Positions 4,735-64,000 of a DNA stretch of 64,000 nucleotides are shown one piece after another. Position numbers and translations under genes: made by a program. Each line of letters opens with the position of its first letter. Positions within the stretch are counted from its first letter, which is position 1. This DNA comes from Candidatus Poribacteria bacterium (GTDB taxonomy: Bacteria; Poribacteria; WGA-4E; PCPOR2b): NCBI GenBank assembly GCA_022822785.1, contig JAJEAL010000134.1:75349-139348 (forward strand). Direction: 5' to 3'. The notes beneath the pieces are model-generated. The model searched no databases, had not been told where the DNA came from, and saw only the letters and a program-made list of their open reading frames with translations.

Positions 4735-5106
4735 TTAGTCGCGCTCGGCATCACTGCCACATTTTCTGCATACGCGCACACGGTACTTTTTCATCCGTCC
4801 GCTAGTCTCCTTCTCAAGGGTGCGCCGTCTGGTTCGAGCGGGCTGGTTACATTTTGGACAAATCAGCTTTAAGTTAGCAAGGTTGATGGTTCCTTCTCTT
4901 TCGACAACACCACCTTGTGGGGCTTGAGGACTGGGACGGGTGTGCCTTTTAATCATGTGGATGCCTTCAACAGTGGCTCGACGTTTATGGGGAAGCACTT
5001 CTAGAACGACCCCCGTTTTGTCCTTATCCTTGCCGGTCAATACTAACACGTGATCGTTTTTCTTTATATGAAATTTGGTGTGCAACGGGGCTACCTCCTG
5101 GGGCAT
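4735..5106 (-). CDS. rplX: 50S ribosomal protein L24 with a C-terminal Cys4 (CPKC...CRKC) zinc-ribbon-like tail
   Basis: KOW-type N-terminus (HIKKNDHVLVLTGKDKDKTGVV). C-terminus aligns to Bacillus L24 DPKT...VAKKSG, with the four positions replaced by Cys. Confidence 0.85.
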   Translation of the reverse strand: MPQEVAPLHTKFHIKKNDHVLVLTGKDKDKTGVVLEVLPHKRRATVEGIHMIKRHTRPSPQAPQGGVVEREGTINLANLKLICPKCNQPARTRRRTLEKETSGRMKKYRVRVCRKCGSDAERD

Positions 5107-5475
5107 CTAAATGACCTCTGGCGCTAAAGAGACGATTCGTGCAAATGCTTTTTCTCTGAGTTCGCGAGCGACGGGACCAAAAATACGTGTTCCCCGCGGT
5201 TGGTCTTGGGCATCAATGAGCACGGCAGCATTCTTGTCGAATTTGATATAGGAACCGTCGAGTCTTCGGTGTTCCTTAGTCGCGCGGACTACGACTGCTC
5301 GCACGACCTCTCCTTTTGTAACTTGGCTATTTGGATTTGCTTCTTTCACACTTGCCACGATTACATCGCCAACGCGTGCATAACGCCTTTTGCTGCCGCC
5401 GAGCACACGAATACACATAAGCTGCTTTGCTCCTGTGTTATCCGCGCAATTTAACATGGTATACGCTTGAACCAT
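5107..5475 (-). CDS. rplN: 50S ribosomal protein L14. Start moved to the internal Met ([17 protein letters not shown]).
   Basis: Homology to the L14 N-terminus MIQQES..VADNSGA; the ORF-table start at 5517 adds 14 unsupported residues. Confidence 0.9.
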
Positions 5476-48974: not shown

Positions 48975-49646
48975 ATGAAATGTAATCAAGTACAGGAAAA
49001 GCTACTTCACTCTATTGACAAGGAGTTGTCTCCACAGATTCGAGAGCATCTGCTTGGCTGTAAAGAATGCGAGCAGAAATATCGAATCTTACAGACGACG
49101 CAGAAATCGCTAGAAGATTTTGGCCGTGCTGTTCGAGATGGTTCTATTTCAATGGAGGCACCGCCATTTCCGCCGGTTCGACGCCGTTCCTTCTGGATCG
49201 AAATACGCGATAGCCTGAAAACGCCGGTGCCGGTGTGGATACCATCTGCTATCGGTGTGGTTGGGTTGCTGCTGTTCGTTGTGTCGATTTTTTCGCCGCT
49301 CACGCCGTCGGTGGAATGGGGTACACAAAAAGGGAGTGAAAATGCAGGTCGCATCGCTCCACCACTCTCAGCGGAGGGGATGTTGGAGTTTCTCATTATG
49401 CCTGAACCAACGGATGCAGCACAACTCGCCGCCTCAATCGAAACAGTTGAAACGTTCCTGAAGATGCATCCCGACGATCTCGCGATGCATGCCAAACTGG
49501 TTGATCTGTATCAATCTCGACTCAAGTTGGGGGAACTGTCCGCCGGCGAGCGCGACGCCATGGCAGAGAAATTATCACTTGAACGACAACGTTTTTCAGC
49601 GCTGCTGGAAAATTTTACGAAAGGGGTAGAGAATGATTCAGAATAG
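48975..49646 (+). CDS. Anti-sigma factor (zf-HC2 putative zinc finger plus a single TM helix)
   Basis: 223 aa, CxxxxxxLLxxxDxELxxxxxxHLxxCxxC motif and one TM segment (VWIPSAIGVVGLLLFVVSIF). Confidence 0.7.
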   Translation: MKCNQVQEKLLHSIDKELSPQIREHLLGCKECEQKYRILQTTQKSLEDFGRAVRDGSISMEAPPFPPVRRRSFWIEIRDSLKTPVPVWIPSAIGVVGLLLFVVSIFSPLTPSVEWGTQKGSENAGRIAPPLSAEGMLEFLIMPEPTDAAQLAASIETVETFLKMHPDDLAMHAKLVDLYQSRLKLGELSAGERDAMAEKLSLERQRFSALLENFTKGVENDSE

Positions 49647-52600
49647 CTTGGGACAAACAGGTGGATGGAAGGAGGGAAAGATGGAAGGATGGAACCAATC
49701 TTCCATCTTCGCTTCCGCTTGCATCTTGATTCGATGGGCGCTTTCGGTCTGTAGTTTATTTGTAATTTTTTCACAGCCCATCCACGCTGAACAATATGCC
49801 ATCCTCGTGGGCGTTTGGGACTATGAAAATCCAAACTTACAGCTTGATGCGCCGCCAAACGATTTGAAGCTGATGGAAGCGGTGCTCTCGGCACAGGGTG
49901 TCACACAGGAACAGATGCACATCCTCCCCAATCCGAACAAGGCACAGATTCAACGTAAATTTCGGGAACTCAGCCGCCGCCTGACCCCTTCCGATAGCCT
50001 GCTTTTTTATTTTAGTGGGCATGGCACGCAGATTATTGACAAACTCGGAACTTTTCCGGGGGATGAAGCGAAAGGGCGATACCCGGACAGGAACGATGAA
50101 GCACTGTTGCCTGTGGACGCGGATCTGGCATCGCCCAAGACGTACCTGTTGGATGACGAACTCAATACCCTGCTCCAAGAACTGCCGACGCAGCAGGTCT
50201 CCTGCATTATTGACACATGCTACTCCGGCGACATACTTCGAGAGATTCGTCTGGGACGGCCCAAAGGCTCGCCGGTGGCGGATACCCCAACGGGGATCGC
50301 TCAACCTACCCAGATTGTAAGCCATACGGAGGACATCTTGGATGAGTCCGCCGATTTTGCGCTGCTGTTAGCGGCTTCTGCATACAATCAGGTCGTCCAT
50401 GAACTGCGCATCCCGATTGGCGAGACCTATCTACCTGTCAGTGCGATGACCTATTCTCTCTATCGAGGGGTGTTTGCGCGCTCGCAACCTCCTGCAGATC
50501 AGATGGACGCGAGACAATGGGACGGCAAACTGACGTACCGCCAAATTATTCAGCATATCCAGAACGACCATAGGCAGTGGAATCTAGCGTGGCAGCCTGT
50601 CCTTGAGGGACCAGGAAATCGCTTCAATGAGGTGTTTCTCCCTACTGACTTGATGCCGCAATTAAACGACACATTAACCCTGACAACAATAAAGGGGCAG
50701 TCGATATCGGTGAGTCGGCGGGCGTTGGCGCTTGCCGGTGGTGGCAATTTTCAGCTTGGCGCTGCGAGTGGTATCAACACCCGACATTGGGCGGTTGTTA
50801 TCGGCGTGGATGCGTATCCGTCACCCTTTCAGTCGCTCAAGTATGCTGCCGATGATGCCAAAGCGGTCGCGCAGGTGTTCCAAGATGCAGGCGCCAATGT
50901 GACGCTGATGACGCCTGATAGCCTGATTCAGCCGACGAAGGCGAATATAATTGAACAGCTCCAACGACACGCTCAACTTGAAGGGGTAGATCTGCTGACC
51001 GTTTATCTCTCTGGGCATGGCGAGGATGTCAATGGAACAGGTTACTTTCTACCGATGGATGTCGCCGATCCACTCGTGGACGGTGGACTGAGTCTTGAAA
51101 ATCTGTTTGCGATTCTCAACCGCGCAAACGCCAAGCATCGGTTCGTCATCGTTGATGCGTGTCGAGTGGCACCGAAGGCCCACTTCGTTGCGGCGCTGTC
51201 GCGCTATAGTGAGGAGAGCAATATCATCTTCACAGCGTGTGATAGCAACCAGTGGGCACCGGAAGTTCCACGCCTGAAACATGGACTGTTCACCTACTTC
51301 CTGCTCAAAGGGCTGCGCGGCGGCTCCCAGGACCGGGGCGCAGCAGGTGCCGATGGGACCGTCACGGTATTGGGGTTATTGGATTATGTGACACGCGGCA
51401 TTGAGGAGTGGCATTCCCACCTGTCCGAGGAGCAACACTATCCGCAGCAGATTACGCCCCGCGTCTTTTATAACGGGAAATATATCTCACTGTTGAACAA
51501 CCAAGGGATTGACCCGGCGGTGATCAACAATGAAGGGCTGCTTCCCCAAATTACCAATACGTTCCGACATCAACTCGCCCGTAGCTTGGAATTAGCACCT
51601 TCTTCAGAAAGAAATGATGGTGTTACACCGTCAACCCCAAAAGGTAACGATTTACATCTGCCTGTGACCATTTCACTAATTCCGTGGATTAGTAGTGTTG
51701 GCGTCCATGACTTCAACCGTAATATCACAACGAACCTGTCACTCAATATTATTGCAGGTTATCATACCAAGTTGGATGGCATCGAATTGGGTGGGGTTTT
51801 GAACATAAAGGGGCTTGAGGCGAAGGGCTTACAATTCGCTGGGGTTGGGAATATCGTCGGTGGGGATGTAGACGGTTTCCAAGTTTCAAGTGCACTTAAC
51901 GCTGTGGGCAGAAATATGGAGGGTTTCCAAACGTCGGGTGGAGTCAATGCTAGTGGTCGCGACGTTAACGGGTTCCAAGTCGCGGGTGGTGCCAACATCG
52001 CCGGCAAAAACGTGGAAGGTTTCCAAGCGTCAGGTGGAGTCAACGTTAGCGGTGGTAATCTCGATGGTTTCCAAGCAGCGGTGGGCGGCAATGTGGTTGG
52101 CAGAGATGTGGTCGGTGTCCAAGCCACAGTCGGGGCGAATCTGGGTGGGCGTGACCTTCGAGGTTTGCAGGCAGCTGGCGGCGCGAACTTCGTCGGTGGG
52201 AAAGTGGGAGGTCGAAGTCTACAGGCCGCGGTCGGACCCAACATCGCTGGGCGTTTAGAGGGGACACAGCTCAGCGTGTCTGCTAATATCGCGCTTGATC
52301 GGTATCAAGAGACAAATCTCTCGTACGCAGGTACACAGATTGGGATGGTCAATATTGCGCCCGGTGATATTGGGACACAGATTGGGCTTCTCAATATTGC
52401 TGGTCATGTGGGTACGTCGCAGGTGGGCCTGCTTAACGTCTCCGGACGGATGTCGGGCGTCCCGATCGGATTGATCAGTTTCGTCAAGGATAATCCACTA
52501 CACCTGCAACTGTGGAGTAGCGATACGGAGGTTGCAAACCTTGGGATTCGACTCGGTAGCCGACACGTTTACAGTCTGTTGATGATCGGCAGTTACCCAC

Positions 52601-52950
52601 ACGGCGATTTGGGCAGATGGTCGTCCGGGTTTGGTATCGGTGGGCACATTCCGCTCGGCAGGCAACTCTTTCTGAACGTTGACTTTATTACGCGCCAGGT
52701 GGGTTATACCGACGAATGGGCGGAGGAGACTTGGCGGTATGATGAACACACCGTCTTGAACAAACTGCGCCTTGGGTTTGGCTGGGAGCAGCACAAATGG
52801 TTCAGCTTCTTTGGTGGTGTTTCGCTCAACTTCCTCGTCTCGGATAGAGGGGACACTTCGGATTTTGGGTACGGATTTGATCATGTATACCGAAGGGATG
52901 ATACGACCGTTCGTATTTGGCCCGGGTTCTTTGCGGGGGTTCAGTTTTGA
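49633..52950 (+). CDS. Secreted tandem-caspase (peptidase C14 x2) protein with Gly-rich 16-aa repeats and a beta-barrel-like C-terminus
   Basis: His/Cys dyads FYFSGHG...DTCYSGD and VYLSGHG...VDACRV. Signal-like N-terminus. Repeats GFQxxGGxNxxGxxxx. C-terminal ...GFFAGVQF. Confidence 0.7.
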   Translation: MIQNSLGQTGGWKEGKMEGWNQSSIFASACILIRWALSVCSLFVIFSQPIHAEQYAILVGVWDYENPNLQLDAPPNDLKLMEAVLSAQGVTQEQMHILPNPNKAQIQRKFRELSRRLTPSDSLLFYFSGHGTQIIDKLGTFPGDEAKGRYPDRNDEALLPVDADLASPKTYLLDDELNTLLQELPTQQVSCIIDTCYSGDILREIRLGRPKGSPVADTPTGIAQPTQIVSHTEDILDESADFALLLAASAYNQVVHELRIPIGETYLPVSAMTYSLYRGVFARSQPPADQMDARQWDGKLTYRQIIQHIQNDHRQWNLAWQPVLEGPGNRFNEVFLPTDLMPQLNDTLTLTTIKGQSISVSRRALALAGGGNFQLGAASGINTRHWAVVIGVDAYPSPFQSLKYAADDAKAVAQVFQDAGANVTLMTPDSLIQPTKANIIEQLQRHAQLEGVDLLTVYLSGHGEDVNGTGYFLPMDVADPLVDGGLSLENLFAILNRANAKHRFVIVDACRVAPKAHFVAALSRYSEESNIIFTACDSNQWAPEVPRLKHGLFTYFLLKGLRGGSQDRGAAGADGTVTVLGLLDYVTRGIEEWHSHLSEEQHYPQQITPRVFYNGKYISLLNNQGIDPAVINNEGLLPQITNTFRHQLARSLELAPSSERNDGVTPSTPKGNDLHLPVTISLIPWISSVGVHDFNRNITTNLSLNIIAGYHTKLDGIELGGVLNIKGLEAKGLQFAGVGNIVGGDVDGFQVSSALNAVGRNMEGFQTSGGVNASGRDVNGFQVAGGANIAGKNVEGFQASGGVNVSGGNLDGFQAAVGGNVVGRDVVGVQATVGANLGGRDLRGLQAAGGANFVGGKVGGRSLQAAVGPNIAGRLEGTQLSVSANIALDRYQETNLSYAGTQIGMVNIAPGDIGTQIGLLNIAGHVGTSQVGLLNVSGRMSGVPIGLISFVKDNPLHLQLWSSDTEVANLGIRLGSRHVYSLLMIGSYPHGDLGRWSSGFGIGGHIPLGRQLFLNVDFITRQVGYTDEWAEETWRYDEHTVLNKLRLGFGWEQHKWFSFFGGVSLNFLVSDRGDTSDFGYGFDHVYRRDDTTVRIWPGFFAGVQF
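51870..52265. repeat. Intragenic ~48-bp tandem repeats (about 8 copies) encoding the Gly-rich 16-aa units
   Basis: Periodicity is visible in all frames. The antisense frame gives PPTxxP repeats. Confidence 0.6.
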
Positions 52951-53066: not shown

Positions 53067-56000
53067 TTAGACCAATGCTGCGCTGCAAATAATCTTTGGA
53101 ACGGTTTCATTTTCAAGTTGTGCGGCTTGCTGCCTCGATTCCCATTCCCGCATGTTGTGTTGACGATACAGGTCTCTCAGATTTTTCAGCAAGGCATCTC
53201 CGGTCACGCCGTTTCGACGCAGTAAATTGAGTTCTCGATTCACCGCGGTTGTAATTGTCCCACGAAACGCCTTTTCCAGTGTGCTGACTTGAGCGGAGAC
53301 ATCTTCATCACCACCCCCCGCCCCCCCGCCGCTAGCGGGGGGGAGAGAGGGGGTAATGATTTTCAATTCCCTTAACACATACCGTTGCCCCTGTGTCAGG
53401 GAGAGGGTGTGCTTGCGTTCCGATTGCAGGTCTTTGATTTCTTGGATGAATAACCGCTTGACCCCCATGATAGTCGCATTGTAATCCGTAGGCAACTCGC
53501 CCCCGGGAAGTTCCGGTTCGCACTCAATCTGATTGAGGATGCGGGAGATGTCTCTGGAGGTAATATCGCCTTTTTCATCCAAAAGGAACAGTTGTTGATA
53601 ACGTCCCGCTTGACAGAACAGATAGGTGCCTTCTGAGCCTTTTGGGATTGCTGTGCGAATCCCGTCTCTCAGATTCGCGATTCGCTCATACTCCTCCGGA
53701 TCCTCACGCCGCAGCTGTCTCAGAATTTCTTCGGCTTCGTTGAGATCGATTACCTTTTCATCTTCGCTTTCTTCAAACAGACTCAACTGCTCGCCTTCCT
53801 CCTCATAGATAGCATACATCGCCGCTTCGTTAAGTTGTTCGGAGTTATCGAGGATAGCTGCGTCCTCACCAATCGTATCGTGAATTTCTTGGATACGGCG
53901 TTGAAGGATTTGTTGCAATCCCAAATTTTGTTCGATGCCGGTTTCTGGCAGAAAGTTAAAGCCGTAAATCACATCGTGCTCGCTACCGATACGGTCGATA
54001 CGCCCGAATCGCTGGATCAGTCGCACAGGATTCCAGTGGAGATCGTAGTTAATGATTTTGTCGCCGTCCTGTAGGTTAAGTCCTTCCGCCAATACGTCGG
54101 TAGCGATAAGGGTGGACAGTTCCGATTCTCCACGCTGAAAACGGTACTCTGAATTTGCTTTCGGCGCAAAACGCCCCACGACCCGTTCTTTGCTTTTATC
54201 ACCGCTATAGATCACGTCAATATCAGTCCGTTTGCTGTTGGGGTTAATATTGTCAAACAGATAACGCGCTGTATCCGCATATTGGGTGAAGATTAGGCAC
54301 TTTCCCTCGTTAAGAGGCGGTTCTGCCAACCGTTTTTTGAGGATTTGCAGCTTCGCATCTTGCTCAGCGGTGATTGGTGATACAAGGTCTGACATCGCTC
54401 GTAGCAGCTGGAGGTCATGCTCAATATCCCCACGTAGCTCGTCGATTTTGAAATCTGCAATGTTGTATCGCGCTGAAGCTTGCCTCAACGCATCCATCAG
54501 GTCCTGTTCCTCTGCTTCGTTCGGTTCGTAGAGGAGGTCTTGTGCTTGGTCACCGGCGGGAACAATGCCTTCTTCTATAGCTTTGAGAAAGCGTTCGTGA
54601 ATCTTCAACAATCGACGCACTGATATCTTAAAGGCGTACACACTGGATTCAAATCGCTTGAACAGGAGTATCCGCATCAGCCCACGAAGGTTGACCCCTG
54701 AACGTTGCAGGTTGGTGTAGGGCTCCTGTTTCTGCTTTGACTTAATTACGTAATTCCAGAGCCCATAGCGGGCATAGGTTAGTGTGCTAACTGAAGAGGA
54801 AGGTGATCGGCTGCCTCGCGGTTTTCCCAGATGTTCCCGCAGCTGAAGGTAAAGCCCCTGATAGGTGTCTTCAATATTGTAGGAGATGGTTTCCAAGACA
54901 CGATTGGGGAAGAACTGCTTGTTTCCACCGACAACGACGTAAGCCTTTCGATGTCCGTCAAGATACTCCTGAAATTGGGACGGATCAACGGGTTGGTCGG
55001 TCTCTCCGTCGAAGCCGTACCAACGCAAGATATGATTGCGGGTGCGTCGGATGAGGATATTTCCTAACAGGTCGGGGAGATTTTTTTCTCGCTTCTCAAT
55101 CTGGCGAAAGTATGTCCGCAGGTTGGGGGGATCTATTGGTAAGTCAGTGATGTCTTCGGGGTGAAAGAGTTTAATCTGGTGGTATACGTCCCAAGCACTC
55201 TTGTTGCGTGGTGTCGCGGTGAGAAAACAGCATTGTCGCCCGGTGGCTAAAAAGGCCTGCAGCACTCTGTAACGTTGCGTGTCACGATGGCGGAAATTAT
55301 GACTCTCATCAACCAGTACAAAGTTCCGGTCGCGGTATATCACATCATCAAGAATTGTCGAAGTGAGATCGTACCCCTGTTCATCCGGTCGATCCTCACC
55401 TTCTCGTAAATGTCCCATAGAAAGGACGCGGGCGTTGAGTTGATAGACTTCGTTGTAGCGTTCCCACATTTGGACCAACGGGGCGGGGCAGACAATTAGT
55501 GGACGTGCATTTTCCGCCCATTCAAAATACTTGACAATTGCTGCACCGATGTAGCTTTTACCGAGACCGACGACATCTGCGACAAAGGCACCGCCGTAAT
55601 CCCGAATAATCTGCACCGCTTGCTGGACCGCAACTTTCTGAAAATCCGCTAACTGTTTGGTAATGTCCTCCTCCCAGAGTATGTCCCCCTCGTCGCCCCC
55701 TTCAAGTCGATCTTTAACCAACTCATAGAGTGTCTTCATGTAAATGTCGTAGGGGGACACGGGGGCGATTGCCCACGATGATTTCATTACCTCCATTAGG
55801 GATTCATCGAAATTTTGCGCTTCATCCCAGAGTTCGTCGAACCAGCGACATAGTTCGGCGTGGTTTGCGTTCCCTTGCACCACAACGTTTAGCTCGGTAT
55901 TGTGGCTTACACCGGCTAGTGTGAGGTTAGATGATCCGACAACGGCGATGCCTTTTTCATAGCGTCCTTCGTCGTTATAATCGAAGATGTAGGCTTTGGC

Positions 56001-56465
56001 GTGTAGTCTGCCTTTGGTGTAGACGCGGACCCGCAGCCGCTTTTCTTTTATCATCTCGACCAACGTTTTGATCAACAATTCACCGTCGTCGGTCTGATCC
56101 ATTAACTCCACAGACTCTATGATGTTCTCTGCGGTTTCTGCCCCCATCTGTTGACTTTCGATGCGTTTGGGGTAGGTCTGGGCTTCGGCGACATCGGCGA
56201 CCTGTTCTAACCTGGGATACCCTTCGGCGAGCTGCTCCAACGTCTCACGATTGGTGGTATTACCGATCAGCAAGCGGAGTTCTTTGACGCCCTGTAGTTC
56301 TTTCGCAATGCTTTGAAATCCCGACAGAAAAAAATACCCTACCGCGAATCTCGCTTTTTCGGTGGAGTCGAGGATGAGGTTGATGTGTTCTGCCAACTTT
56401 TCGCTTCGGTTGTCAATGATGTCGTGTTGCATTTCGGTTGCTTGCCCTAGTTTTTTGCCGTTCAA
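53067..56465 (-). CDS. PLD-family (HKD) nuclease fused to an SNF2-family SF2 helicase, 1132 aa
   Basis: HKD motif RLHAKAYIFD in the N-terminal domain. SNF2/DEXH motifs GLGKS, FVLVDESHNFR, LIATDVLAEGLNLQ, QRFGRIDRIGS. Confidence 0.75.
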   Translation of the reverse strand: MNGKKLGQATEMQHDIIDNRSEKLAEHINLILDSTEKARFAVGYFFLSGFQSIAKELQGVKELRLLIGNTTNRETLEQLAEGYPRLEQVADVAEAQTYPKRIESQQMGAETAENIIESVELMDQTDDGELLIKTLVEMIKEKRLRVRVYTKGRLHAKAYIFDYNDEGRYEKGIAVVGSSNLTLAGVSHNTELNVVVQGNANHAELCRWFDELWDEAQNFDESLMEVMKSSWAIAPVSPYDIYMKTLYELVKDRLEGGDEGDILWEEDITKQLADFQKVAVQQAVQIIRDYGGAFVADVVGLGKSYIGAAIVKYFEWAENARPLIVCPAPLVQMWERYNEVYQLNARVLSMGHLREGEDRPDEQGYDLTSTILDDVIYRDRNFVLVDESHNFRHRDTQRYRVLQAFLATGRQCCFLTATPRNKSAWDVYHQIKLFHPEDITDLPIDPPNLRTYFRQIEKREKNLPDLLGNILIRRTRNHILRWYGFDGETDQPVDPSQFQEYLDGHRKAYVVVGGNKQFFPNRVLETISYNIEDTYQGLYLQLREHLGKPRGSRSPSSSVSTLTYARYGLWNYVIKSKQKQEPYTNLQRSGVNLRGLMRILLFKRFESSVYAFKISVRRLLKIHERFLKAIEEGIVPAGDQAQDLLYEPNEAEEQDLMDALRQASARYNIADFKIDELRGDIEHDLQLLRAMSDLVSPITAEQDAKLQILKKRLAEPPLNEGKCLIFTQYADTARYLFDNINPNSKRTDIDVIYSGDKSKERVVGRFAPKANSEYRFQRGESELSTLIATDVLAEGLNLQDGDKIINYDLHWNPVRLIQRFGRIDRIGSEHDVIYGFNFLPETGIEQNLGLQQILQRRIQEIHDTIGEDAAILDNSEQLNEAAMYAIYEEEGEQLSLFEESEDEKVIDLNEAEEILRQLRREDPEEYERIANLRDGIRTAIPKGSEGTYLFCQAGRYQQLFLLDEKGDITSRDISRILNQIECEPELPGGELPTDYNATIMGVKRLFIQEIKDLQSERKHTLSLTQGQRYVLRELKIITPSLPPASGGGAGGGDEDVSAQVSTLEKAFRGTITTAVNRELNLLRRNGVTGDALLKNLRDLYRQHNMREWESRQQAAQLENETVPKIICSAALV

Positions 56466-56791
56466 TCCTGTGAGGATTCTGTTCGCAATGCTTGTCCAAT
56501 ATATTCGTCGTGTCGTTCGCTGAGATCTGTGGAATCACATTCCAATGTACCTGCCAAGGCTAGTAGTGGATCGGGGTTGCCAGACATCATTTTCCGTAAG
56601 TGACTGTCGTTTTCTACTATCCCGTCTAGGGCACTTTCGGCAGATAAATTTGTCTGCTCACGTTCAAACCGTTCAACCATAGCCGCAACCCATTGAGCGG
56701 TCATTTCTTCGGGAGTTTTCCCGAATTGTTGGGCGATATGTTTTAAGGAACGATACAAACTGTTCTCAAGTTTGATTGTTAATGTTTGCAT
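56462..56791 (-). CDS. Small putative ribbon-helix-helix (CopG/Arc-like) protein, translationally coupled (ATGA overlap) to the PLD-SNF2 gene
   Basis: 109 aa. N-terminal TLTIKLENSLYRSLKHIAQQFGKTPEEM is a strand-helix pattern typical of RHH. The assignment is tentative. Confidence 0.35.
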   Translation of the reverse strand: MQTLTIKLENSLYRSLKHIAQQFGKTPEEMTAQWVAAMVERFEREQTNLSAESALDGIVENDSHLRKMMSGNPDPLLALAGTLECDSTDLSERHDEYIGQALRTESSQD

Positions 56792-56860: not shown

Positions 56861-57331
56861 TTACTCCCTTGCCCAACCTATCAGTGCTTTATCGGGGGAG
56901 GCAATGTCGTTGATGGATGTATAATAGTAGCGTTCCCATCCGAGACGAGGCAGACCGGTGAAAATCATCAGGTTGAGTGGATATACATCACTATCGACAG
57001 CACGTCGAAAGTCGTCCCGAAATAGGAAGGTGGGCTTACCGAGTGCTATCGCTATTCCTAGCTCGATCATGACCCCTTCATCTGGGGGCACTCCGTTTAT
57101 GACCGCAAAAATTGCGTCCGCATCGAATACGTCCTGTTTGTCCTTCTGTCCAATTCGGTACGCCCAGTCGGAGGATAACCTGTCCTGGTTATTGCGTTCA
57201 AACGGCTCCCATACTTCTAACCCAACCGCTTCCAATGCCTTAACGAGAGCGGGTAAAGCGGTCTCTCGCAGTTGCTCTGAGAAGCCGTAGGGATTTGCCA
57301 GATATATTGTCTTTTTTTTTGTTACGGTCAT
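56861..57331 (-). CDS. Nucleoside 2-deoxyribosyltransferase / DNPH1 (Rcl)-fold protein
   Basis: 156 aa. IYLANPYGF...AVINGVPPDEGVMIELGIAIALGKPTF matches the NDT/DNPH1 D..G...E.G.A.A.GKP nucleophile motif. Confidence 0.6.
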   Translation of the reverse strand: MTVTKKKTIYLANPYGFSEQLRETALPALVKALEAVGLEVWEPFERNNQDRLSSDWAYRIGQKDKQDVFDADAIFAVINGVPPDEGVMIELGIAIALGKPTFLFRDDFRRAVDSDVYPLNLMIFTGLPRLGWERYYYTSINDIASPDKALIGWARE

Positions 57332-59102: not shown

Positions 59103-59516
59103 TTACGTCTTGACGATGACAAATACACCGATGATGAAGGCAATCTCTATTATGTAAAAAATAATGAGGGTGAGGGAAAAGATAGCGGAAAGCCAGCTAC
59201 ATTTCGGTTTATCTCTGTGCTTTAGGGAACTCATCTCAAAATCGGTATCGGATTGAACCCTGATTTCGTTGTATACTTGTCGAAACAATCTTTCTTGCCA
59301 GAGAAAGTATCCGTCCAGAATCCAAAACCCAAGGGCGGGCAGGATAAGCACTAGGACAAAGTACGGGTTTTGTATTTCAGGTTTGGCGATTAAAACCATC
59401 GCTGCGACAATAATAGTCATACTCCAACTTTTGACTAAGAAACTATTGCTCCCCAAACGGTTGATAACAGCTTGGGTCATTTCCAAGTGCTTTACGACCT
59501 TTTCCGTACCATTCAT
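59103..59516 (-). CDS. Small membrane protein with three predicted TM helices
   Basis: 137 aa. Three hydrophobic segments (TIIVAAMVLIA, FVLVLILPALGFWIL, LSAIFSLTLIIFYIIEIAFIIGVFVIV). AT-rich gene. Confidence 0.45.
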   Translation of the reverse strand: MNGTEKVVKHLEMTQAVINRLGSNSFLVKSWSMTIIVAAMVLIAKPEIQNPYFVLVLILPALGFWILDGYFLWQERLFRQVYNEIRVQSDTDFEMSSLKHRDKPKCSWLSAIFSLTLIIFYIIEIAFIIGVFVIVKT

Positions 59517-59612
59517 GGTTTTATCCTCCTGTGCCGCATTTTGAAATTTGGTGATGTAATCATAAGGTTAATTTTTTATTAAGGATTTTCTCTACAATGC
59601 AGATTTCCTCGC

Positions 59613-60281
59613 TTATTCTTGCACCATTTTCGTTATGTTGTAATCATCTATTTTTTCTTTTATGTCTTCAGCCGTTTGAAGGTATGTTTCTTTATCTGCT
59701 ATAAAATCGCACCATTTAACTGAATGAATGTACGAGGACGCCCCTGTGTAAACAGGATAGTTGCTTGGATGGTTTGCACAGTTATTAAATGCAGGTTCCT
59801 TTATATTGAACATATTATCTTTCAGTATCTGAAACAGTCTATCAATATATAGAGATCTACAATGGCAAATGATACATGTGTCATCTGCAAGAAAGTAGCT
59901 ATATGATAAATATTCATCTGGCAAAACAACTGCTAACATTGCATTTGTTCGGCTTGTACGTCCATTCCGTGTAATTTCTTTCAGAGAGTATGAAACTTCC
60001 CACGGAATCCATTGGTCAGATTCCTTTTGCTCAGAATCTTTCATTTCTGGTGAAATTAGGACAAGCGTTAAACTACTGTCGTATATTTTGTCTTTTAGAT
60101 GAGATTCGATGGTTTCATCCTTAAAATCACTTAAATCTTCATCACCCTCCCCTTTGTAGATTTCATCATCTTCAAATAAATCAATTAGCTCATCAACATA
60201 AGCACGGGCAGTTGTTTCACCGTTAATAGGTTGAACACTATCATCAGCATGTTTATAGGAAACAAAAATTTTTCTTGCCAT
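59613..60281 (-). CDS. TIR-like protein (DUF1863 / ThsB-like)
   Basis: 222 aa. N-terminal KIFVSYKHADD and SLTLVLISPEMKDSE...WIPWEVSYSL resemble ThsB RVFFSFHYQD / TCVLIGSQT...WVRYEI. Confidence 0.55.
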   Translation of the reverse strand: MARKIFVSYKHADDSVQPINGETTARAYVDELIDLFEDDEIYKGEGDEDLSDFKDETIESHLKDKIYDSSLTLVLISPEMKDSEQKESDQWIPWEVSYSLKEITRNGRTSRTNAMLAVVLPDEYLSYSYFLADDTCIICHCRSLYIDRLFQILKDNMFNIKEPAFNNCANHPSNYPVYTGASSYIHSVKWCDFIADKETYLQTAEDIKEKIDDYNITKMVQE

Positions 60282-60433
60282 TTAGTTGTTGCTCCTTATC
60301 AATTTCCCAATTCCTATCAAAATATTTGCTTTCTGCATCCGTGCCCCCACAAGATAAACAACCCCTTAATGCATACCATCCCGTTCTCCTCGCGTGACGT
60401 TGAGGACGTTTGAAAATGAGCGTTTTACCACGA

Positions 60434-61648
60434 TTAGAGTGGGCAAATTCCATCTACTTGGATAGTAGAAGGTTCAACATTTGTATACTGCTGGGGGCGA
60501 CGCCCTTTGAATCTGACTTGTAACCGCTTTGAGTCTAGAAGCCTTAAATCCAATTGAAGTACATCTCCGACTGTGTTTGACAGTTTCAAATAAAGCACCG
60601 AAATTAAACGGGCGAATTTCTTGAACCTCCCGGCCGGTTGTCCAAAAGACTGATAGAGCTGTGGGATAGGGGATTCGAGAATTTGTAGACCGGTTTCATG
60701 GTATGATGAACTTCCGCCCCCAATAAAAGCCTCTAACATTCTTTGATTTATTAGATCAGATTGATCGAACCAAGGACTGACAGTCTCTAGCTTTTCATCA
60801 AGAAGAATCCTTCTTGCTCGCATTTTGGCAATCTGATCTGGTGAGATGTTGTTGAACGCCATATCATCAAGGGGATTGCTCTGTTGTCTACGACTATCTT
60901 CCTCCAAAACAACTTTCCAAACGGTTTGAGAGCTAGACGTAGCTTGAGAGATCTCCCGTGGACTTACCCAGGCGGCCTCCTCCCATAGCGCAAAAGCAAG
61001 TCTGTTACGAATAGGCACTATGCCACCACGATTGTTCCGCAATGAACGAAGAAAGGCAACTTCGTCGGGCGATGCTGGAAGCAATTCAAGAGAGATTTCT
61101 GTTGCCCCCCAATGCATATTTTGAAATGGGATAAAATACGGTTTCCCATCTTCTGTGTGGAACAGTACAAATTCACCAGGATCGCTCTCTGCGGCAGTCA
61201 AGGTTGATATATTAGCGTTCACTGGCTGTGATGCAGTGCCCGACAGTTTCTCCACTAAAGCTTGGTAAATTTCTTCCATGTTCGTCGGATCTAAATCAAG
61301 ATATCCGACTGTTGGCAAAATTCCCGGAATCTCTGTGTCATCAATACGAATTGGAAGAATATACTCCTCGTTTTCCTGAAATGCCCTTGCTTGAGCATTT
61401 TGGAGTTCGTGTTGCGCCCATAATTTCTGTGCATAGTGTTCAGACAGGAATATGACACAGTAACGCGCTTGATCCTTGTAAACCGATGAAAAGTGAACGT
61501 AGAGATCTTTACCCCAAAGTTGCGCCCGTTCAAATTCGTCATAAAAGACGGAATACCCCTCTGCTTGGAGACGGTTGGCTAGCTGTTCAGCGTAGGGACG
61601 ATCTTCTCCAGCAAAGGACAAGGCAACATCGTATTGTTTTTCTGTCAT
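60434..61648 (-). CDS. TIR-domain protein (canonical TIR_2 N-terminus) with an uncharacterised ~260-aa C-terminal domain
   Basis: 404 aa, YDVALSFAGEDR...YSVFYDEFE...CVIFLSEHYAQKLWAQHEL TIR signature. Confidence 0.65.
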   Translation of the reverse strand: MTEKQYDVALSFAGEDRPYAEQLANRLQAEGYSVFYDEFERAQLWGKDLYVHFSSVYKDQARYCVIFLSEHYAQKLWAQHELQNAQARAFQENEEYILPIRIDDTEIPGILPTVGYLDLDPTNMEEIYQALVEKLSGTASQPVNANISTLTAAESDPGEFVLFHTEDGKPYFIPFQNMHWGATEISLELLPASPDEVAFLRSLRNNRGGIVPIRNRLAFALWEEAAWVSPREISQATSSSQTVWKVVLEEDSRRQQSNPLDDMAFNNISPDQIAKMRARRILLDEKLETVSPWFDQSDLINQRMLEAFIGGGSSSYHETGLQILESPIPQLYQSFGQPAGRFKKFARLISVLYLKLSNTVGDVLQLDLRLLDSKRLQVRFKGRRPQQYTNVEPSTIQVDGICPL

Positions 61649-61818: not shown

Positions 61819-62862
61819 CTACCCACGAATACCAAAGAATCCCTCAATCACATTGCCCCACTTCGACCAAATTTCAGCCAAGCCTCCACCTGCACTGAGA
61901 GTCGCAGCAAGTGCTGATAAGGTAGGCTTGATGAGCCCTGCTTTTCTGCCGGGTGGTGCTAATGTGGCTTGTGCACTGAGTAACTCCAACTGTTCTAGGA
62001 TTTCAAGCTGTTGTTGTGATGAGATATCTTGGCTCGCTGTTATGGCTTCAATTAAATTCTTGAATGCTTCTGCTATCTGATGTTGATTAAAATCAACTAG
62101 AGTGGAAACGTTTACAGCAATTGATTCGACTTGCTTTATCTCTCCTGCGTTCAACATTCCTACTGTGCTGTTGGATATTTCGACTTTCATTTCAGTTCCT
62201 CCTTTCTGGATTAGTTGTTTAATGTTGAACGTAATGTTGCTCGCAGTTTCCTTCTCGTTTGCAGAAAAAACTAGTCCTTCTCCAAGAATGCCGTTTTCCT
62301 CTAATTTCAAAGCCCATTCTAAAATTATGTTTCTGACAGCCTCTTGGATTTTACGAAATTGAGACTTAGGAACATGGCATTCAGGTTCAGAATTAATATC
62401 TCCAAGATGTTCGCAAAGTTTAAGTTTTAGATCATCGGGAAAGGTTATCTTAACAAGAGAGGAACTTTTGTTGTCAAGTATAGTTTCTATTACTCCAATT
62501 GGATCGAGGACTGACCTTCTTGATAATCGTTTGCCTTCTTCAGGTGATTCAAATGTCCATGGTACCAACCTCTGATTAAGAAGAAGCCTAACCTTTAATT
62601 CCCCATCTACCCAGCGGTATTTAGGCAGCTTTTCCAATCTGTTTTCAGGACAATCCCAATCTAACTCTGCTAGATGATAATAACCGTTCAATTCTAACTC
62701 AATCCACTTTTCAAACTCTTGAATTTTCAGTTTTTTAGCTGCTACGAGTGCTTTTCTCAGTAAGTTGGAAATACTAATATCTGCATTGAGTGCATCACGT
62801 TGTAGTTCTATAATTAATGAGTCCATGAAAGAATCCCTACCTTTCAAAATTATACCGCTCAA
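61819..62862 (-). CDS. AbiTii-like abortive-infection protein
   Basis: 347 aa, N-terminal LLRKALVAAKKLKIQEFEKWIELELNGY resembles the AbiTii domain signature. Confidence 0.5.
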   Translation of the reverse strand: MSGIILKGRDSFMDSLIIELQRDALNADISISNLLRKALVAAKKLKIQEFEKWIELELNGYYHLAELDWDCPENRLEKLPKYRWVDGELKVRLLLNQRLVPWTFESPEEGKRLSRRSVLDPIGVIETILDNKSSSLVKITFPDDLKLKLCEHLGDINSEPECHVPKSQFRKIQEAVRNIILEWALKLEENGILGEGLVFSANEKETASNITFNIKQLIQKGGTEMKVEISNSTVGMLNAGEIKQVESIAVNVSTLVDFNQHQIAEAFKNLIEAITASQDISSQQQLEILEQLELLSAQATLAPPGRKAGLIKPTLSALAATLSAGGGLAEIWSKWGNVIEGFFGIRG

Positions 62863-63029: not shown

Positions 63030-64000
63030 TTAGGTTTTCAGGCTTTTTTCTTTACCGAGCCTGTCAGTAACATGTACTATGAAATCGTCCAAAATTTGCT
63101 CATAACAATCTACAAGTCCAAGAGGTTTTAAGATTAGCATATCGAAGATTTTCCTATCGGAGGCATTTATCTCCTGATCAATTGGCATTACCTCTCTCTT
63201 AGATAGAATGTTAAATGCCTCTATGATTTCGGCAGCTTCTCTATCGGAGAAATTTGAGGGATTGGGAATTAGAAGTGGTTTTATTTCAGGCCCGTATATG
63301 TTAATTCGACCACTTACATTGATACGTCCCATAAGTTCAAGCAGAAAGTACGCTAAAGTTGAGTTGAGCAACGCCGCGGCAAGTTCGCTTGTTTTACGAT
63401 TCCGAAATTTGCCATGAAAAAACATGTCACCTATACGGAAATGATTTTTGTTCAGTGGCACAAAAAATCTCGATCGGATAAGTCTAGGAATTATAAAATC
63501 TCCACCCTCTTGATCCGGAACAGCATACCAAATACTTCTATTACGAATTGTGCTGGCTTGGGGTAAGGGAACGCCCCCGACTGTATGAGACGCTTTTTTG
63601 CTAGTCTTTAAATTTTCACCATATTTGATATATGCTAAGGTTCCCTTTGCAGCCCGCTTTCTTAGTTCCGTTTTAGACAGATCACAAAGGAATATACGTT
63701 TTTGAATATGAGGAGTTTCAATGACAAGCCGCTCTATCTCGTGCATTGAAGTTATAACAGGCTTGAGAAACTCCTCCTCAATCCTCTGCTCCTGAACCTT
63801 TTGATCATCAAGGTAGAAAAACTCATTTGCCCCCGTTGTAAAACCGCGCCGCACGTCTGCAACATCTCCCAAACGAACCAACTTATCCTTCCCCTTTTCT
63901 ATAATTGTCCAGTAGATGTCCGGGGCGCGGAGATACTTTCCGCCCCACTTGTCGCCTGTATACTTTGGGTTGGGAGCGGTATCATCGCTGCCCGTTTTCA
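63030..64000 (-). CDS. C-terminal region (target-recognition part) of an Eco57I-like N6-adenine DNA methyltransferase / type IIG restriction enzyme. The gene continues past the window end.
   Basis: LGDVADVRRGFTTGANEFFYL motif. The frame stays open upstream of the ORF-table TTG start through 64000 (...YLRAPDIYWTIIEKGKDKLVRLGD...). Confidence 0.6.
   Translation of the reverse strand, partial: KTGSDDTAPNPKYTGDKWGGKYLRAPDIYWTIIEKGKDKLVRLGDVADVRRGFTTGANEFFYLDDQKVQEQRIEEEFLKPVITSMHEIERLVIETPHIQKRIFLCDLSKTELRKRAAKGTLAYIKYGENLKTSKKASHTVGGVPLPQASTIRNRSIWYAVPDQEGGDFIIPRLIRSRFFVPLNKNHFRIGDMFFHGKFRNRKTSELAAALLNSTLAYFLLELMGRINVSGRINIYGPEIKPLLIPNPSNFSDREAAEIIEAFNILSKREVMPIDQEINASDRKIFDMLILKPLGLVDCYEQILDDFIVHVTDRLGKEKSLKT

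Follow-up and report, generated by a model that had tools for sequence, protein, structure and literature searches.

The described system closest to the locus analysed here is type V Thoeris, in which a TIR protein, ThsB, is paired with a membrane effector, ThsF, and which was validated from Bacillus thuringiensis DAR 81934 and Bacillus sp. 1NLA3E (Yirmiya et al., bioRxiv 10.64898/2025.12.03.692087). According to the same preprint, type V ThsF has three transmembrane (TM) helices and is modelled by AF3 as a homo-heptamer with positively charged pockets; 3'cADPR is produced on infection and poisons cells that have the system, and the Tad1 sponge relieves the defence. One type V variant was unresponsive to added 3'cADPR (bioRxiv 10.64898/2025.12.03.692087). 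The PADLOC database holds a similar candidate, PDC-M50, which consists of a membrane protein (M50A) and a TIR-like protein (M50B). PDC-M50 is a computational candidate whose mechanism is unpublished; a literature search on PDC-M50, 8xMP and 'octameric membrane protein' returned nothing relevant and no paper mentioning PDC-M50.

We analysed a 64,000-nucleotide stretch of DNA (the window) from a Candidatus Poribacteria bacterium. Three co-directional open reading frames of 404, 222 and 137 aa, which the earlier note had picked out, were confirmed on the minus strand, with a gap of 152 bp between the 404-aa gene and thsB and of 96 bp between thsB and thsF. The features of the locus are as follows.

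49633-52950, plus strand: caspase-domain protein, 1105 aa
[quoted passage not shown]
59613-60281, minus strand: thsB, 222-aa ThsB-type TIR protein (Pfam ThsB_TIR, PADLOC ThsB model)
60434-61648, minus strand: 404-aa TIR protein, probably a separate defence gene (Pfam TIR_2)
61283-61627, minus strand: TIR domain of the 404-aa protein, residues 8-122
60437-61177, minus strand: C-terminal domain of the 404-aa protein, unannotated, residues ~158-404
61819-62862, minus strand: AbiTii-family abortive-infection gene (Pfam AbiTii, E = 1.2e-36; PADLOC AbiTii, E = 1.8e-39)
63030-64000, minus strand: type IIG (MmeI/Eco57I-like) restriction-modification (R-M) gene, 3' part, running out of the window (PADLOC REase_MTase_IIG, E = 2.3e-25)

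The three-gene stretch was rightly described before as AT-richer than its surroundings (41.2% GC against 49.5% for the whole window, a value equally low in only 4% of equal-sized windows), although the AT-rich zone extends over 58.6-64 kb, includes AbiTii and the R-M gene, and is not peculiar to the three genes. The stretch is part of an AT-rich defence island. We consider it likely that two distinct defence units lie side by side here, a type V Thoeris pair and a stand-alone 404-aa TIR protein.

[quoted passage not shown] This validated ThsF matches the profile of the family with an hhalign probability of 100% (E = 8e-49) and has its hydrophobic segments at the same positions, while the other neighbour of the validated ThsB has no hydrophobic segments. 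All four PADLOC PDC-M50A models match the 137-aa protein (best E = 1.3e-37), and the same four models also match the validated ThsF. The earlier note had given the protein three TM segments, and three hydrophobic segments were found, at about residues 30-46, 52-68 and 108-136, by hydropathy and from the helices of an AF2 monomer model (mean pLDDT 96; helices 3-43, 51-86 and 115-136). The charge distribution suggests a topology with an N-terminal amphipathic helix inside, TM1 at ~30-46, TM2 at ~52-68, a cytoplasmic helix and loop at 69-107, and TM3 at ~108-136. All 16 invariant or nearly invariant residues of the ThsF family are kept in the 137-aa protein (H10, L11, Q15, R20, F26, K29, W31, F64, W65, L67, D68, L72, E75, R79, Y82 and S114). 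They are concentrated in the cytoplasmic helices, with the basic residues H10, R20, K29 and R79 among them, which fits the mechanism proposed in the preprint.

Pfam DUF2270 (PF10028), the label under which the preprint places type V effectors, was of no help here. The 137-aa protein gave no hmmscan match to it at E ≤ 10, nor did the validated ThsF, and among the relatives of the 137-aa protein 15 of 99 showed sub-threshold matches (best E = 0.0044). The label was probably obtained with a more sensitive method, and it does not discriminate in this case. There were likewise no matches to curated Pfam or NCBIfam families, nothing significant when the ThsF model was compared with the PDB by Foldseek, and no match in a profile search of PDB sequences. 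Standard hmmscan with DUF2270 misses the validated ThsF family, which is detected by the PADLOC PDC-M50A models or by a profile made from its own members; ThsF will therefore be overlooked wherever annotation depends on Pfam. A SLATT or Macro identity of the 137-aa protein was ruled out, as neither gave a match. The preprint's separate '3TM' effector category was rejected because direct comparison groups the 137-aa protein with the validated ThsF.

For the 222-aa protein, Pfam ThsB_TIR (PF08937, called DUF1863 in the earlier note) scores 25.5 bits against a cut-off of 21.2, and the protein matches the PADLOC ThsB model PDLC00428 over its full length (E = 4e-81). In a sequence alignment its residue E95, in the motif WIPWE, shares a column with the Glu in RWVRYE of B. 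cereus ThsB, which we take to be the catalytic residue, and with the corresponding Glu in the validated type V protein. The alignment points to residue 95 as the catalytic Glu. The protein is 61% identical to IMG 2501732538 of TIR cluster 2742576382, a cluster to which Table S1 of the preprint gives the label 'DUF2270 - Type V' (bioRxiv 10.64898/2025.12.03.692087). The validated type V ThsB proteins belong to clusters 2734579397 and 2612357774 instead, so we infer the signal of this ThsB; the preprint shows 3'cADPR, for the B. thuringiensis system, only for TIR clusters other than this one (bioRxiv 10.64898/2025.12.03.692087). A B. cereus plasmid carries a ThsB homologue, 60% identical, beside a SIR2 gene. 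This is normal for Thoeris, in which a single TIR cluster is found with effectors of several types (bioRxiv 10.64898/2025.12.03.692087). The earlier note had proposed that homologues next to a canonical ThsA, in genes never co-conserved, would speak against its reading. This one homologue does adjoin SIR2; the ThsB/TM pair is nevertheless co-conserved.

We examined 80 genome loci containing ThsF. In 14 of them the gene immediately upstream of ThsF is of the type of the 222-aa ThsB, and in 43 a TIR gene of any of the preprint's type V clusters is adjacent. On plasmids of Priestia, Terribacillus and Klebsiella, ThsF relatives of ~136 aa abut type V-type ThsB genes; these were found with the 137-aa protein as the query, while plasmid loci found with the validated ThsB as the query lacked ThsF or were incompletely annotated. 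The adjacency of ThsF and type V-cluster ThsB is kept across phyla. When the DNA upstream of thsB was aligned for the 14 loci, only the Shine-Dalgarno sequence was common to them. The remaining 37 of the 80 loci have no recognisable TIR gene nearby, so ThsF may also act with distant or other partners, and the question arises whether such effectors can be triggered in trans. These 37 loci, together with the missing matches to curated families, could also be read to mean that the 137-aa protein is not a signal-activated effector, being instead a leftover or unrelated membrane protein (a holin-like or immunity protein, for example) beside a ThsB that is solo or inactive. We regard this as scarcely credible, given that the ORF is full-length with every conserved residue of the family present, that a validated system has a strongly homologous effector gene, and that a ThsB of a type V cluster is immediately adjacent, an arrangement conserved across phyla.

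From its sequence and gene order, then, we assign 59103-60281 to type V Thoeris (ThsB and ThsF). Like the validated systems, it consists of two adjacent co-directional genes with a three-TM effector of ~140 aa of the same family, a TIR gene of a preprint type V cluster with the conserved catalytic Glu, and a location in a defence island. It differs in the TIR cluster, in the host (Poribacteria, apparently of metagenomic origin and sponge-associated, rather than Bacillus) and in the extra 404-aa TIR gene upstream. Compared with PDC-M50, the effector agrees; for this ThsB the match to PDC-M50B is weak (E = 0.0048) and that to the PADLOC ThsB model strong. The earlier suspicion of a Thoeris-like system with a small membrane protein as effector, belonging neither to type I nor to type II, was therefore well founded, and the profile and co-conservation checks it had called for came out in favour of the ThsB/TM pair. 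Its view that the arrangement is undescribed does not stand: the type V preprint, with experimental validation, dates from December 2025, and PADLOC had catalogued the pair earlier as candidate PDC-M50. Conceptually the pair brings nothing new; what it widens is the range of type V Thoeris, which now takes in uncultured lineages apparently associated with sponges, and ThsB cluster 2742576382, whose signal is presumed.

Other Thoeris types fit the locus less well. Type I (ThsB with a SIR2-SLOG ThsA) uses the same kind of ThsB and probably the same signal, 3'cADPR. However, no SIR2, SLOG or Macro gene was called within 10 kb on either side of the three-gene stretch, in agreement with the earlier report of no ThsA nearby, no neighbouring gene matched PADLOC ThsA, and the effector here would act on the membrane rather than by NAD+ depletion; type I was rejected. 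Type II was rejected for want of a Macro domain in the 137-aa protein and its neighbours. Type IV was ruled out as well: the caspase-domain protein is encoded on the other strand, ~6 kb off and separated by five ORFs, and is not adjacent to a TIR gene. Type II (TM-Macro ThsC), type VII (SLATT ThsH) and the TM effectors of CBASS and Pycsar would share with this pair the principle that a small-molecule signal acts through an effector spanning the membrane, with death or arrest of the cell as the outcome. They differ in that Macro and SLATT domains are absent here, in effector family and in their signals (His-ADPR and canonical cADPR).

By analogy with the systems of the preprint, the pair may work as follows. 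The 222-aa ThsB, presumed to be both phage sensor and signal synthase, would sense phage infection, and its TIR domain would make a cyclic ADP-ribose from NAD+ as the signal, with 3'cADPR the likeliest form. ThsF would form a ring-shaped homo-oligomer in the inner membrane, with the signal binding to positively charged cytoplasmic pockets between protomers. Signal-bound ThsF would then breach the membrane, which may halt both the infected cell and the phage ahead of progeny release.

The 404-aa protein is a TIR protein of another kind. Residues 8-122 match Pfam TIR_2 (E = 1.4e-20; 74.5 bits, cut-off 28), so that both TIR assignments of the earlier note hold in profile searches. A putative catalytic Glu, E81, is invariant among homologues. 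The solved TIRs closest in sequence are 7uxr, 7uwg and AbTIR 8g83, which we take to be makers of cADPR isomers, and a profile search of PDB sequences with the whole protein returned TIR matches only. Residues ~140-404 matched nothing in Pfam, NCBIfam, PADLOC or PHROGs, and a metagenome scan with the C-terminal domain returned only two remnants of 62 aa. PADLOC PDC-S66 was rejected as an identity for the protein, since residues 2-100 (the TIR) match only positions 145-240 of 282, the match is not full-length, and the domain order differs.

In its genomic contexts the 404-aa gene behaves differently from the pair. A type IIG R-M homologue lies upstream of it in 14 of 15 distinct loci, ThsB and ThsF are absent from 7 of 8 of its contexts, and about 10 of 14 pairs of the 222-aa-type ThsB with ThsF have no 404-aa gene beside them. 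These patterns argue against the three genes forming one unit, as the earlier note had supposed, and suggest that the 404-aa protein is probably an independent defence gene that merely neighbours the Thoeris pair.

At least 8 distinct loci do, on the other hand, have the gene beside a Thoeris V module, to one side of it or the other, and at least 17 of the gene's best 120 homologues share a contig with one of the best 120 ThsF homologues; some functional tie is therefore possible. The three genes could together make up one type V system in which two TIRs act as sensors, the 404-aa protein being a second ThsB whose C-terminal domain reads another phage cue, possibly tail-tube-like proteins, and which sends the same cADPR signal to ThsF, widening the phage range. 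The order 404-aa TIR, ThsB, ThsF recurs in loci L006, L010, L035 and L092, and the order ThsF, (ThsB), 404-aa TIR in L025 and L032, co-directionally and with short gaps of 57-160 bp. No promoter-like site was found on the coding strand between the 404-aa gene and thsB in a promoter and terminator scan that was barely above background, so co-transcription is possible. Thoeris operons also often carry several TIR genes, and the nearest solved TIRs named above would suit a signal synthase. We nonetheless hold this to be unlikely in view of the many contexts in which the 404-aa gene and the pair occur without each other, and of the constant R-M neighbour. In addition, none of the preprint's Table S1 rows considered here contains a TIR with the conserved N-terminal motif of the 404-aa protein, 'SFAGED(R)'.

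The 404-aa protein might instead be a second effector, whose C-terminal domain binds the ThsB signal and whose TIR then depletes NAD+, by analogy with the TIR-SLOG effector of type IX. Type IX does use a TIR-containing effector, one member of this ThsB cluster appears under type IX in the preprint, which also remarks that an effector role is possible for some of the TIRs in operons of this kind (bioRxiv 10.64898/2025.12.03.692087); the invariance of E81 would also agree. This is very improbable, since by sequence the C-terminal domain matches neither SLOG nor Macro, SAVED or STING-like domains and the gene mostly occurs without a nearby ThsB.

In the more likely case that the 404-aa protein stands alone, its C-terminal domain would most likely recognise a phage component and turn on the TIR NADase, and the unit (60434-61648) would be part of a hotspot that follows a type IIG R-M gene, not of the Thoeris pair. 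A role of the domain as a sensor is plausible by analogy with DSR2, which is activated by a tail tube protein, and with other stand-alone TIR or SIR2 NADases, which also combine an N-terminal NADase-type domain with a large C-terminal domain that may sense a phage structural protein. The 404-aa protein differs from DSR2 in having a TIR rather than a SIR2 domain, and the C-terminal domains are unrelated in sequence. Going by a structural model of moderate confidence, the domain would itself resemble the tail tube/Hcp fold, whereas DSR2 binds such a protein with an alpha-solenoid. We tentatively put forward, as a rather doubtful possibility, that the family is an undescribed one combining a TIR NADase or signal synthase with a tail-tube/Hcp-like domain, which would sense phage by co-assembly with, or displacement by, tail components, and would either deplete NAD+ alone or feed cADPR to ThsF; its position may then reflect functional coupling with restriction and not a shared hotspot.

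The near-constant place of the gene downstream of diverse type IIG R-M genes was seen in sponge-associated bacteria of several phyla. The 404-aa protein represents a well-conserved uncharacterised family with a genomic signature and a structural hypothesis. In locus L001 the type IIG R-M gene is complete (1223 aa, with MmeI_Mtase, Eco57I and M_Eco57I_C). The place of AbiTii, flanked by the R-M gene and the 404-aa TIR gene, is variable: in related loci it is taken by DUF6602, an AAA_15 ATPase or other genes.

The earlier note had proposed three co-directional open reading frames as a Thoeris-like system with a membrane effector, and all three were found on the minus strand at 59103-61648. They are separated by gaps of 152 bp (404-aa gene to thsB) and 96 bp (thsB to thsF), and they sit within a dense defence island, as annotated with Pfam, NCBIfam and PADLOC. 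The loci nearest to that of the window belong to Candidatus Poribacteria MAGs.

Genes of the island (coordinates, strand, description)
49633-52950, plus: caspase-domain protein, 1105 aa; central Peptidase_C14, Pfam E = 2e-35, PADLOC 'caspase' E = 4e-34
53067-56465, minus: PLD (HKD) + SNF2 helicase, 1132 aa; PADLOC C3a139 'HKD+Snf2', E = 2.6e-87
56462-56791: 109-aa island ORF upstream of the PLD-SNF2 gene
56861-57331, minus: nucleoside deoxyribosyltransferase-like gene, 156 aa
57337-58560, minus: Schlafen AlbA_2/HATPase_c_4 gene, 407 aa
58677-58964, minus: 95-aa ORF, downstream of thsF
59103-59516, minus: thsF, 137 aa; ORF, three hydrophobic helices
59613-60281, minus: thsB, 222 aa; ORF, Pfam ThsB_TIR, PADLOC ThsB
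60434-61648, minus: 404-aa TIR protein gene; ORF, Pfam TIR_2
61819-62862: AbiTii, after the 404-aa gene in island order
63030-64000: type IIG R-M gene, continuing beyond the window end

The AT-richness ascribed to the three genes is real (41.2% GC against 49.5% for the window), but the low-GC zone takes in the entire end of the island, 58.6-64 kb. Gene calling over 10 kb to each side gave no SIR2, SLOG or Macro gene, in agreement with the claimed absence of ThsA. We did not regard the 1105-aa caspase protein as a type IV Thoeris effector, because it lies ~6 kb from the TIR genes and is not adjacent to them.

The 222-aa protein scored above the Pfam ThsB_TIR threshold and aligned along its entire length with a PADLOC ThsB model (E = 4e-81), confirming its assignment as a ThsB-like TIR protein, and sequence alignment indicated that the catalytic Glu is kept (E95). 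In Table S1 of Yirmiya et al. (10.64898/2025.12.03.692087), many members of TIR cluster 2742576382 are listed as 'DUF2270 - Type V', and one of these members is 61% identical to the window ThsB.

Thoeris types V to XI were defined by Yirmiya et al. (bioRxiv 10.64898/2025.12.03.692087, December 2025); type V consists of ThsB and ThsF, a three-TM effector labelled DUF2270. For the 137-aa protein, the AF2 model and hydropathy show three hydrophobic helices, and it matched all four PADLOC models of PDC-M50A, a candidate membrane-protein family (best E = 1.3e-37); we found no mention of PDC-M50 in the literature. hmmscan gave no match of the protein to DUF2270 even at E <= 10, and only 15 of 99 diverse relatives gave matches, all sub-threshold. 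Because the DUF2270 label could not be reproduced, we made a direct comparison with the validated type V locus of B. thuringiensis, where the ThsB sequence from Table S1 retrieved an identical protein (P0391). A 141-aa gene lies 14 bp after this thsB. Its product is 42% identical to the window protein (E = 8e-32), aligns with the family profile (hhalign probability 100%, E = 8e-49), matches the same PDC-M50A models and has hydrophobic segments in the same positions, whereas the other gene flanking the validated ThsB has none. This 141-aa protein also had no significant Pfam DUF2270 match, so DUF2270 is unusable as a criterion. Moreover, plasmids of Priestia, Terribacillus and Klebsiella carry relatives of the 137-aa protein, themselves ~136 aa long (E = 1e-47 to 1e-52 against the family HMM), that adjoin ThsB genes of the type V kind. 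On the homology with the 141-aa gene and the company of these plasmid relatives, we identify the 137-aa protein as ThsF. Instead of DUF2270, the ThsF family (alignment A1) and positions 4773-5198 of a fetched locus (L096) gave weak near-full-length matches to DUF3278 and to Pfam 8xMP (PF24838, 'octameric membrane protein family', 136 positions), on which no literature was found.

Judged by sequence, the window ThsB and ThsF are a type V Thoeris system: the pair agrees with type V in every feature testable in this way except the Pfam DUF2270 label, which the validated ThsF likewise lacks. The proposed mechanism with a membrane effector was essentially right, but the system is one already described in the preprint.

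In the AF2 model of ThsF, which was very confident (pLDDT 96), an amphipathic helix at the N-terminus continues into TM1; a short outer loop leads to TM2, which continues into a cytoplasmic helix, and a charged loop precedes TM3. The charge distribution suggests that the N-terminus and residues 69-107 are intracellular. Fifteen of the 16 invariant or nearly invariant residues, including H10, R20, K29 and R79, fall in the two juxtamembrane and cytoplasmic helices, consistent with the proposal that positively charged pockets for the ligand lie between ThsF protomers (10.64898/2025.12.03.692087). In the B. thuringiensis DAR 81934 system, infection leads to 3'cADPR production, adding 3'cADPR poisons cells that have the system, and the Tad1 sponge relieves defence (10.64898/2025.12.03.692087). 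By analogy, the signal made by the window ThsB would be 3'cADPR, since it is the product of validated type V and IX TIRs (10.64898/2025.12.03.692087) and a B. cereus plasmid carries a 60% identical ThsB homologue next to a SIR2 gene, the ORF of which is short and possibly degraded. A phage trigger would activate ThsB, and ThsF would then oligomerise and breach the membrane.

The ThsF family is large, comprising 829 clusters at the 90% identity level and 3632 representatives at the 50% level. We fetched 80 ThsF loci (L004-L083), mostly from apparently sponge-associated MAGs of Poribacteria, Binatia, Nitrospirales, Gammaproteobacteria and other phyla. TIR genes were sought in all 80 with a limited seed set and one Pfam batch. 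A gene of the 222-aa ThsB type lies directly upstream of ThsF in 14 loci, and a TIR gene from any cluster listed as type V in the preprint adjoins ThsF in 43, often immediately downstream. In the other 37 loci, this search detected no TIR gene within 2.5 kb; ThsF there is flanked by ordinary genes of defence islands (AAA_15/AAA_21 ATPases, Schlafen, TPR and PIN) and is apparently an 'orphan' effector.

ThsF is present more than once in some genomes: contig CBDBFT010000001.1, for instance, has three copies (L060, L062, L063). The window ThsF is 55-86% identical to those of L004-L083 across MAGs of at least ten labelled lineages (Poribacteria, Binatia, Nitrospirales, Gammaproteobacteria, Terriglobia, Opitutales, Latescibacteria, Bdellovibrionales, Fibrobacteria and Owenweeksia), yet just 42% identical to Bacillus ThsF, suggesting that it has spread horizontally in recent times, apparently among members of sponge microbiomes. 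For both ThsB and ThsF there is a full-length match to a PHROG family without known function (phrog_13658, E = 6e-40; phrog_19896, E = 7e-34), and the pair is therefore present in phage or prophage genomes too. A recurrent ~30-nt motif like TCTGAATCACAGATTAAATAAATGATGAAGA, with an internal inverted repeat, occurs ~60-110 bp upstream of thsB in loci with and without the 404-aa gene (L006, L010, L041, L047, L049, L092); none was evident upstream of thsB in the window.

The 404-aa protein has an N-terminal TIR_2 domain (Pfam, E = 1.4e-20, residues 8-122), and for its ~260 further residues Pfam, NCBIfam, PADLOC and PHROGs gave no match, bearing out the description of a canonical TIR with an unannotated C-terminal domain. 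All 49 homologues compared keep W77 and E81, and the solved structures closest to it in sequence are those of bacterial TIR proteins, the NAD+ hydrolase AbTIR among them. The order 404-aa TIR, ThsB, ThsF recurs in four fetched loci (L006, L010, L035, L092), and in two (L025, L032) the 404-aa gene is on the opposite side of ThsF. At least 17 of its best 120 homologues lie on a contig equal in length to that of one of the best 120 ThsF homologues. However, ThsB and ThsF were present in only one of eight other 404-aa loci, a fraction that understates co-occurrence because these loci were drawn from contigs outside the ThsF list, and about 10 of the 14 pairs with the 222-aa ThsB type lack the 404-aa gene, so that the proposed three-gene unit is not supported. 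The constant neighbour is a type IIG R-M gene, upstream in all eight look-ups with variable genes between, and upstream and co-directional in 14 of 15 distinct loci (the window, L006, L010, L032, L035, L037, L092-L095 and L098-L101). This linkage reflects either a hotspot or functional coupling. Given it and the partial linkage to ThsB-ThsF, we concluded that the 404-aa gene is most likely a separate gene in a common hotspot with the Thoeris pair. The MmeI/Eco57I-like R-M genes are highly divergent, and the variable genes in between include AbiTii, DUF6602, an AAA_15 ATPase, an acetyltransferase and a TIR-TPR gene.

The 95-aa ORF matches, as two separate halves (~50% coverage each), 184-195-aa ORFs in related loci (L005, L022, L035), so the window copy is only partial; the 195-aa L035 version had no Pfam match. 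The PLD-SNF2 helicase, whose start the 109-aa ORF overlaps by 4 bp, matched an NCBIfam phospholipase-D anti-phage protein below cut-off, and its homologues are kept in several related islands. The Schlafen gene is followed after 5 bp by the nucleoside 2-deoxyribosyltransferase-like gene, and these two genes may be a defence module of their own. Either or both have close homologues (70-95% identical) beside ThsF in eight Poribacteria loci (L005, L006, L007, L022, L035, L038, L056, L092), and in another fetched locus (L004) the transferase-like gene comes directly after ThsF.
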